Positions 3,535 through 3,939 of a stretch of DNA of 24,124 bases are shown here, one piece after another. The stretch comes from a virus. Numbering within the stretch: position 1 is the first letter of the stretch; every line of letters starts with the position of its first letter. The translations under genes and the position numbers were made by a program. The stretch lies in the UHGV virus genome UHGV-0149432; one strand, given 5' to 3'. Below the pieces are notes generated by a model, which was not told where the DNA came from, made no database searches, and saw nothing but the letters and a program-made list of their open reading frames with translations.

Positions 3535-3939
3535 TCATGGCTGACCTTCGAAGTTCCATCTTGCGGAACCCATATTAAAGTAAACTCTCCGATCGGTAAA
3601 CGCCGGGAATGTCGCTCTTTCAGAAGCTTTTTGCAATGCAGCGCAATAATCTTTGTCACCACCTTTCACGATAAAATTTTGCAGGGTGCCATCGACTTTG
3701 AAATCCAGATGAGCGTCACATCTTTTACCATTCCAGGCATGGGGCTCTGTAAGTGCTGCGTCCAAAGCTTTTTTTATTCTGGATGAGTACCATCCATATA
3801 TATCCTTATCCGACACTTTACCTGAACTCTTATATTCGCATGATTCCATTGCGTTTTTTTTCTGACAGCCTGTAGGTGCAAGAGGGGAGCAACCTGCAAT
3901 GGTTAATGTCACCACAATCAACATTAAAAATTTTATCAT
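3535..3939 (-). CDS. outer-membrane lipoprotein with TolA C-terminal (domain III)-like domain
   Basis: 134-aa ORF; signal peptide MIKFLMLIVVTLTIAGC with lipobox IAGC and Ser at +2; mature part (GKRCDAHLDFKVDGTLQNFIVKGGDKDYCAALQKASERATFPAF) follows the TolA domain III pattern GKxC...DG.L......GGD..C.A...A. Confidence 0.75.
   Translation of the reverse strand: MIKFLMLIVVTLTIAGCSPLAPTGCQKKNAMESCEYKSSGKVSDKDIYGWYSSRIKKALDAALTEPHAWNGKRCDAHLDFKVDGTLQNFIVKGGDKDYCAALQKASERATFPAFTDRRVYFNMGSARWNFEGQP

Follow-up and report, generated by a model that had tools for sequence, protein, structure and literature searches.

Domain III of TolA (TolAIII) is a hub hijacked by group A colicins and filamentous phages, and the physiological TolA–TolB contact drives outer-membrane stabilisation at division. 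Placed in the periplasm, TolAIII is reported to bring about colicin tolerance together with outer-membrane leakiness. On the one hand, strand β3 of TolAIII (L417, D418 and K420) and the adjoining cavity bind the N-terminus of TolB, the N1 domain of the filamentous-phage protein G3p (pIII) and colicin N by β-strand addition (PMC4339652, PMC7391070), a mode of binding that is mostly backbone-mediated (PMC4339652). On the other hand, the opposite edge of the domain (residues 375–380), together with K368, K379 and K396, binds colicin A, the lysines taking part through cation–π contacts (PMC3365938). TolAIII is also the coreceptor of the I-pilus phage IF1 (PDB 2x9a title). The stretch of DNA analysed here (the window) comprises 24,124 nucleotides of the virus genome UHGV-0149432 and carries, at 3535–3939 on the minus strand, a gene for a 134-aa protein in which a TolAIII domain stands alone behind a predicted lipid anchor. 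Tethered to the outer membrane, this protein could act as a decoy and intercept both bacteriocins that bind TolA and the pIII of filamentous phages, a tentative reading in which we place nearly, but not quite, even confidence.

The lipoproteins Llp of T5 and Cor of phi80, N15 and HK022 (PHROG 1119) are likewise small, phage-encoded, located in the inner leaflet of the outer membrane (a location predicted for the window protein) and accessory in status; however, they protect by blocking the receptor FhuA, whereas the window protein copies a domain of a host periplasmic hub. Membership in the Cor family was considered and rejected, the only match to PHROG 1119 (E=0.074) being confined to residues 1–37, that is, to the signal peptide. 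Engineered periplasmic TolAIII (Levengood-Freyermuth et al. 1993; Wan and Baneyx 1998) resembles the window protein in that the domain is uncoupled from its motor and lies in the periplasm, and its overproduction serves as a tool for releasing periplasmic protein into the medium (PMC6195910). The engineered domain, however, is soluble, overproduced and identical to host TolAIII, whereas the window protein is natural, diverged, predicted to be lipid-tethered and presumably present at modest levels. Exclusion by filamentous-phage pIII involves the same interaction of g3p-N1 with TolAIII: periplasmic pIII-N1 sequesters TolA, with a 4-log drop in phage uptake and resistance to colicin A (PMC10424213). 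In that case the host receptor is saturated with ligand from the invader, and in the present one the invader's ligand would be saturated with a receptor copy; blocking entry by saturating one partner of the g3p–TolA contact is thus established in the mirror-image case, to which the window protein can be compared by analogy.

Architecture of the lipoprotein and its TolA domain III

The gene runs from an ATG start to a stop codon at 3535–3537 and is recognised from the open reading frame (ORF) list, Pfam and Protein Data Bank (PDB) matches and the ratio of nonsynonymous to synonymous substitution (dN/dS). A first-pass annotation made from the sequence had described a 134-aa lipoprotein with the lipobox IAGC, Ser at +2 and a domain following the TolA domain III pattern. 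The ORF was found exactly so, and Pfam, sequence matches in the PDB, and a structure model searched with Foldseek all agree on the domain. The Pfam family PF06519 (TolA C-terminal) matched at E=9.2e-11, with 42.2 bits against a gathering score of 25 and residues 48–126 aligned to profile positions 13–92 of 96, which places the protein within the family. E. coli TolAIII chains (2x9a, 3qdp, 1s62 and 1tol) were retrieved by phmmer against the PDB at E ~1e-5.

An AlphaFold2 model built on 22 homologues reached a pLDDT >90 across most of residues 45–134 (3538–3807, minus strand). Its secondary structure consists of a helix (47–62), strands 73–80 and 86–94, helices 96–106 and 117–123, and a C-terminal strand (125–131), so that the model reproduces the TolAIII arrangement of a helix, a three-stranded sheet and helices. 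In a Foldseek search of the PDB, the TolAIII structures 3qdr, 3qdp and 2x9a were hit with a probability of 1.00, a target-normalised TM score of 0.85–0.91 and an rmsd of 1.0–1.6 Å, compared with a TM score of only ~0.4–0.5 for the TonB C-terminal domains, the nearest other fold family. A structure prediction compared with TolAIII was among the checks that the first-pass annotation had proposed, and the lack of such a fold was among the outcomes that it had named as counting against it; the fold is predicted. No significant fold match to the model was found among the viral structures of BFVD. The residues C74 and C99 align with the Cys363–Cys388 pair of TolA and are invariant in both alignments (A1, of the 22 homologues, and A2), and a disulfide is predicted between them.

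The N-terminus fits a textbook signal peptidase II substrate by its sequence. The signal peptide (residues 1–16, MIKFLMLIVVTLTIAG; 3892–3939, minus strand) has a short basic n-region followed by a hydrophobic core, and it ends in the lipobox residues I-A-G ahead of Cys17 (…LTIAG-C17), in agreement with the pattern [LVI][ASTVI][GAS]C expected behind a hydrophobic signal sequence. Among 65 full-length-like small homologues, 56 have a lipobox. Relative to Cys17, Ser occupies +2 and Pro +3; because of the +2 rule, Ser at this position and the lack of Asp, the Lol-avoidance residue, predict sorting to the outer membrane. The putatively lipidated Cys17 opens a linker that contains further cysteines (residues 17–44, CSPLAPTGCQKKNAMESC...; 3808–3891, minus strand), leaving ~28 residues between Cys17 and the fold. 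The linker is defined by the alignments A1 and A2 and by low model confidence: its pLDDT is ~50, and both it and the signal peptide are poorly defined in the model. It carries a motif, C-x-P-L-x-P-x-x-C-x-K-x-x-A-x-x-x-C, that TolA lacks and that is common to subfamilies otherwise only 30–40% identical; written as C-x-P-L-x-P-x-x-C-x-K…C, the motif was seen in 36 retrieved homologues. A disulfide between C25 and C34 within the linker is probable. The lipid-bearing Cys, C34, C74 and C99 never vary in the alignment of the 22 homologues, and C25 almost never does.

The protein is not a full-length TolA. The equivalog profiles TIGR02794 and PRK09510 scored below their cut-offs (33.5 bits against 59.45, and 42.2 against 213), and the matches were confined to the last ~95–120 profile positions. 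An inner-membrane helix for coupling to TolQR and the helical domain II are both missing, the N-terminus being instead a cleavable lipoprotein signal peptide; the protein therefore cannot couple to TolQR or transmit force. The gene lies outside a tol-pal operon, with a DUF551 pseudogene and genes for DinI, DUF1367, NinG and Q as neighbours. Compared with TolAIII itself (PF06519; PDB 1TOL, 1S62, 3QDP/3QDR and 2X9A), the fold, the position of the disulfide, the order of secondary-structure elements and the C-terminal edge strand are shared, although the identity to E. coli TolAIII is only ~25% (24–26%). In contrast to TolA, which is anchored in the inner membrane, the window protein is predicted to be lipid-anchored to the outer membrane; it also possesses the extra Cys-containing linker, and the lysines contacted by colicin A are replaced.

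Ligand surfaces and the decoy proposal

For a free-standing copy of TolAIII, the first-pass annotation had suggested superinfection exclusion, tolerance to colicins or modulation of the envelope, and this is still the most plausible class of explanation. Since a domain without a TolQR-coupled anchor and domain II cannot transduce force, a competitive function is the most likely one. As proposed here, the product of a lysogenic-conversion (moron) gene would be placed at the outer membrane, where the ~28-residue linker, probably stapled by its disulfide, would hold TolAIII in the periplasm just under the membrane. The tethered domain, incapable of force transduction, would act by competition: the edge strand and the cavity of TolAIII would be presented to ligands whose entry depends on the tip of the real TolA, such ligands being the N1 domain of filamentous-phage pIII/g3p and, in Tol-dependent (group A) bacteriocins, the translocation domain. 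The tether would place the copy at the point where pIII and the translocation domains of colicins come into the periplasm first; an invader would be held at the outer membrane without coupling to the proton-motive force, and tolerance of the lysogen would result. As a side effect, the copy would probably also titrate the TolB N-terminus to some extent. We infer the outer-membrane localisation, the expression in the lysogen and every ligand interaction in this scheme. We favour the decoy because the gene is arranged as a moron, has been kept in a dead prophage, is under purifying selection and has relatives on plasmids with phage-receptor pili.

The plasmids in question belong to the I-complex and F-type groups, whose pili are the receptors for TolA-dependent filamentous phages. 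On the protein side, the equivalent of β3 in the window protein (residues 125–131, SARWNFE) is modelled as a confident, proline-free strand; because strand addition depends mainly on the backbone, sequence alone cannot decide on binding. Other small lipoproteins of the wider family have kept the β3 sequence of TolA almost unchanged (…LDFKP), as would be expected of a ligand mimic. If true, a natural, mobile and lipid-anchored copy of the hub would be the first decoy-type counter-measure described for the TolA entry route. It could account for some of the colicin insensitivity that occurs naturally in Enterobacterales, and for the way in which conjugative plasmids compensate for the exposure to phages that their pili bring. 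TolAIII variants with separated functions would also be at hand for distinguishing the surfaces that bind TolB from those that bind invaders.

Several observations weigh against a decoy. The identity to TolAIII is only ~25%. The colicin A contact lysines K368, K379 and K396 correspond to D79, I90 and E107 in the window protein, and β3 reads SARWNFE compared with NAPLDFK in TolA. The surface-type residues H67, W69, H77, D79, R127 and W128 are invariant yet specific to the subfamily, and together with the Cys linker they suggest a partner that TolA does not have. No family in PADLOC-DB v2 was matched at E<=1 by the window protein or by two of its relatives. Most homologues of 60–71% identity have chromosomal neighbourhoods in which phage genes of this kind are not recognisable, and the function therefore need not be tied to phage competition. 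In E. coli, moreover, the prophage relatives lie downstream of Q beside lysis genes, and a 32-fold rise with ciprofloxacin was reported for one prophage gene described as TolA-type (PMC11125564), an induction that fits a role in the lytic cycle at least as well.

The last two observations are also those that speak for a Tol-Pal modulator: here the tethered TolAIII would bind the TolB N-terminus or another TolA partner (e.g., CpoB) and exert a mild dominant-negative effect. Outer-membrane stability, vesiculation or permeability would be altered, either as a trait of the lysogen or as an aid to envelope breakdown during lysis, for which the position of the E. coli relatives between Q and the holin gene and the ciprofloxacin induction of the TolA-type prophage gene would be apt. 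TolB, G3p and ColN share the β3 site, so that keeping the site permits TolB binding (PMC4339652, PMC7391070), and the release of periplasmic protein by overproduced periplasmic TolAIII (PMC6195910) is an effect of the expected kind. However, the copy in the window and its four relatives in Citrobacter prophages are antisense in the nin region with an upstream region of their own, outside the late operon, and the gene is intact in a prophage that is no longer able to lyse, its Q being a pseudogene. A chronic tol phenotype would be costly, yet the chromosomal homologues are under purifying selection, and the affinity of TolA for TolB is weak, with a Kd of 40–200 µM (PMC7391070). We consider such a modulator unlikely.

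As a further alternative, the lipoprotein might exclude phages by blocking a receptor, with a new target in place of the TolA ligands; this is favoured by the divergence from TolA at ligand positions that have been mapped, by the invariant residues specific to the subfamily and by the conserved linker with its cysteines. The domain would then be a scaffold that docks by β-strand addition on an outer-membrane or periplasmic protein, for example by binding a TonB box or plug at the periplasmic face, and would close the entry route as T5 Llp and Cor do at FhuA. The predicted cellular address and the size are those of Llp and Cor, which are phage-encoded lipoproteins of the outer-membrane inner leaflet, and the TolAIII–TolB and TonB–TonB-box complexes are structurally alike (PMC7391070). 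Nevertheless, the fold is far nearer to TolAIII than to any TonB C-terminal domain (TM 0.85–0.91 against ~0.4–0.5), the similarity to the Cor PHROG stops at the signal peptide, as noted above, and the gene neighbourhoods yield no candidate target, which leaves a receptor blocker of this type with a low probability.

Relatives on chromosomes, plasmids and prophages

A word-index search retrieved 22 proteins of 61–99% identity from Citrobacter, Pantoea, Serratia, Enterobacter and Rouxiella, all of which contain PF06519 and are named by NCBI either 'tolA family protein' or 'cell envelope integrity TolA C-terminal domain-containing protein'. The median pairwise dN/dS over 14 homologues was 0.11, and the gene is under purifying selection. 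This value is hard to reconcile with an inert remnant, that is, a 3′ fragment of tolA captured by the prophage without a function of its own. It is true that the surrounding prophage is decaying and that the PGAP pipeline labels one member of a tandem pair of E. coli relatives a truncated tolA pseudogene ('tolA, incomplete, missing N-terminus'). However, the lipoprotein signal peptide, absent from TolA, recurs in 56/65 small homologues, and so is the additional Cys motif kept among relatives. The ORF has stayed open next to genes interrupted by stop codons, and an identity to TolAIII of only 24–26% speaks against a recent capture. We regard an inert remnant as very improbable.

In a set of species-representative genomes, homologues of 60–71% identity (including those of Erwinia and Yersinia) were found at variable chromosomal sites in several Enterobacterales genera. 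Relatives of the genes of the window prophage were not found flanking them in this set, and one of them lies in an island with an integrase and insertion sequence (IS) fragments. Upstream of most chromosomal homologues there is a conserved TGGCATAAT extended −10-like element and a AAACGGACTTA ribosome-binding region; the former is located ~60–70 nt upstream of the homologues in Enterobacter, Serratia, Pantoea, Pluralibacter and Yersinia (L002–L016). The Citrobacter prophage copy has neither of them, and the gene was therefore re-promoted on entering the phage.

An exhaustive search of representative sequences yielded 59 clusters at E<=1e-3, nearly all of 100–160 aa. They form a gradient in the alignment: some small lipoproteins keep the C-terminal strand of TolA nearly verbatim (…FKNAPLDFKP), and the window protein falls in a more diverged clade with the extra C-x-P-L-x-P-x-x-C-x-K…C motif after the lipid-bearing Cys. 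A member of this diverged clade, with 36–39% identity and the same Cys linker, is encoded on 611 PLSDB plasmids. Its place on pO157 is the F-type leading region, behind psiB/psiA/hok (L021:7001-7432), whereas on conjugative IncK2/Z plasmids (I-complex, MPF_I) it is always flanked by the nikB-type relaxase gene and trbC (L022:7001-7432, L029–L032). The GO term 'bacteriocin transport' that RefSeq assigns to the plasmid relative is purely inferential.

In E. coli Qin-like prophages and in the phage mEp460_ev081, two different TolAIII lipoprotein genes stand in tandem (L001:5416-6390; L028:5169-5975) between Q, with tRNA genes, and the holin gene. One member of the pair keeps the β3 sequence of TolA (…VLDFKP) and is the one that PGAP labels a truncated tolA pseudogene. 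The mEp460 pair was matched in 1339/5426 complete E. coli genomes, and a DNA search of E. coli genomes for the window gene itself returned only short DUF551 matches. These E. coli mobile-element lipoproteins (PHROG 5772; pO157, IncK/Z/I plasmids, Qin-like prophages and mEp460_ev081) share the lipobox, the linker and the TolAIII domain with the window protein at 36–39% identity; they differ in their C-terminal strand (…FDMRG) and in their loci, which are Q–holin, nikB–trbC or the F leading region. PHROG 5772, a group without an assigned function, matched the window protein at E=3e-24. Since mEp460_ev081 was the single match among isolated phage genomes and no significant match was found in BFVD, the family is mostly one of prophages and plasmids rather than of sequenced virions.

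Taken more broadly, the family may be a widespread and unrecognised receptor-mimic defence. Spread over prophages, plasmids of the I-complex and F-type and islets in Enterobacterales chromosomes, its outer-membrane-tethered TolAIII copies would intercept Tol-dependent bacteriocins and pilus-specific filamentous phages ahead of the real TolA, and the diverged subfamily of the window protein would have evolved to keep invader binding and spare TolB; we consider this possible, with doubt somewhat prevailing. The domain assignment is already automatic in public annotation, so that the bare observation is not new, and pipeline labels such as TolA or broken tolA hide the distinct architecture of a common family. 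In the literature searched, which omits most subscription-journal papers, no functional study of phage- or plasmid-encoded TolA-like proteins, of TolA decoys or of pO157 TolA was found. Within that same literature, the lipoprotein-plus-TolAIII architecture, its distribution over morons, plasmids and islets, and any function appear undescribed.

The moron cassette and its defective prophage

The lipoprotein gene belongs to a discrete block of 757 bp (3381–4137, minus strand) that also contains its upstream region and a downstream hairpin. By blastn of the window, this block is 96.7–97.6% identical to Citrobacter prophages (L023 and L025) whose flanks differ, and its GC content of ~0.39–0.46 departs from the 0.50–0.55 of the flanking phage genes. 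With its own promoter-like site and hairpin, its deviant composition and its differing flanks, the cassette has, as read from its sequence, the form of a classical moron. The candidate promoter is σ70-like (TTTAAA, 16 nt, TACAAT; 3976–4003, minus strand) and was identified by a consensus scan as a pattern match only, in a region where 4 promoter-like sites were observed against 2.8 expected.

Two perfect palindromes frame this site. One, CAATTCAAT-aa-ATTGAATTG, has 9-nt arms (3960–3979) and lies just downstream of, and abutting, the −10-like hexamer, which makes it a possible regulator site or 5′-untranslated-region hairpin; the other, AGTAATGAAGT-ctgtc-ACTTCATTACT, has 11-nt arms (4028–4054) and lies upstream of the −35-like hexamer. 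Both emerged from a repeat search and were matched by only 1/1000 dinucleotide shuffles (P ~0.001), and they may bind a regulator or form hairpins. They are kept in L023 and L025 and absent from two further related prophages (L026 and L027), whose upstream sequence is unrelated from position 3971 on. The first-pass annotation had seen here an operator-rich control region separating the gene from the rightward genes. The palindromes are real, but they belong to the upstream region of the moron itself, and there is no repressor gene nearby. An immunity-switch operator region was rejected: no repressor, cro, O or P gene occurs among the listed ORFs (of which a subset was scanned with Pfam), and the upstream sequence is different in 2/4 related prophages. 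At the other end of the cassette, 11 nt beyond the stop codon and between convergent genes, a GC-rich hairpin (ACGCCGGG-gatct-CCCGGCGC, 3504–3524) was revealed by RNA folding of 3440–3545 on the minus strand (−30.8 kcal/mol, z = −3.3). It is a candidate bidirectional terminator with a weak U-tract, and it was not called by the consensus terminator scan.

By a 99% protein match, the window comes from Citrobacter koseri or a species close to it. Host phoP (50–724) adjoins the prophage integrase gene (795–2081, minus strand; Pfam Arm-DNA-bind_2 and Phage_integrase), which is followed by a DUF1233 excisionase gene (2081–2296) and a DUF4060 gene on the minus strand, both recognised by Pfam. From ~3081 on, the genes run rightward: DUF551, DinI, DUF1367, a NinG-like ORF (assigned by eye) and Q. 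The DUF551 pseudogene (3096–3383, plus strand) is convergent with the lipoprotein gene, is interrupted by an in-frame stop at 3249–3251, was identified from Pfam matches of both halves, its translation and a match to L027, and is a remnant of the rightward early operon. The DinI-family gene (4885–5157, plus strand; Pfam) lies immediately to the right of the moron, a position conserved in all related Citrobacter prophages. The antiterminator Q pseudogene (7082–7765, plus strand) has an in-frame stop at 7385–7387, where the intact homologue has Trp, and is recognised from the translations and from a Phage_antiter_Q match to its C-terminal half.

The leftward int–xis–DUF4060 genes abut the rightward nin-region genes at a junction near 3050–3096. 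The prophage is defective: the immunity and replication region has been deleted, and Q and DUF551 carry nonsense codons. The lipoprotein ORF is intact and 96–99% identical to other copies despite its decayed neighbours, and its persistence in a prophage without immunity, replication and Q is weak evidence for a benefit to the host. The gene had also been described as standing next to int, which did not hold up: it lies ~1.45 kb away, with xis, the DUF4060 gene, another ORF and the DUF551 pseudogene between them, and in intact relatives it is found in the nin region. Its closeness to int has no functional meaning, because the deletion of the immunity and replication region brought the moron there.

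A 99%-identical copy of the gene resides in an intact lambdoid prophage of another C. koseri genome (L023), where the order is cI, ydaS/ydaT-type genes, O, P, Ead/Ea22, dATP/dGTP pyrophosphohydrolase, the lipoprotein gene, DinI, DUF1367, RusA, Q and the lysis genes; the lipoprotein gene alone is on the opposite strand in that stretch. Three IMG/VR viral contigs (L025–L027) carry a 96–99% copy at the same position relative to DinI. The promoter-like site of its own and the antisense position in the nin region form an arrangement that, from sequence, is as expected for genes expressed in the lysogen.

Further ORFs of the window resemble lysis, terminase, portal and capsid genes by eye, and the ORF at 17493–18503 matches DUF6260 (Pfam). 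No tail-fibre or tape-measure genes were seen in the window, and the structural module may also be truncated. Directly after a weakly tail-tube-like ORF (20595–21404), the stretch 21431–24074 (minus strand) holds a family-2 glycosyltransferase gene (Pfam Glycos_transf_2; GtrB-like by reading) that overlaps the gene for a 566-aa polytopic membrane protein, which matches no Pfam family and may be a GtrC-type O-antigen modifier. Finally, the AT-rich gap just downstream of the Q pseudogene contains a full-length match to the Hfq-binding small RNA isrJ (Rfam RF01393; 7781–7857, plus strand), with 55.5 bits against a gathering score of 37.

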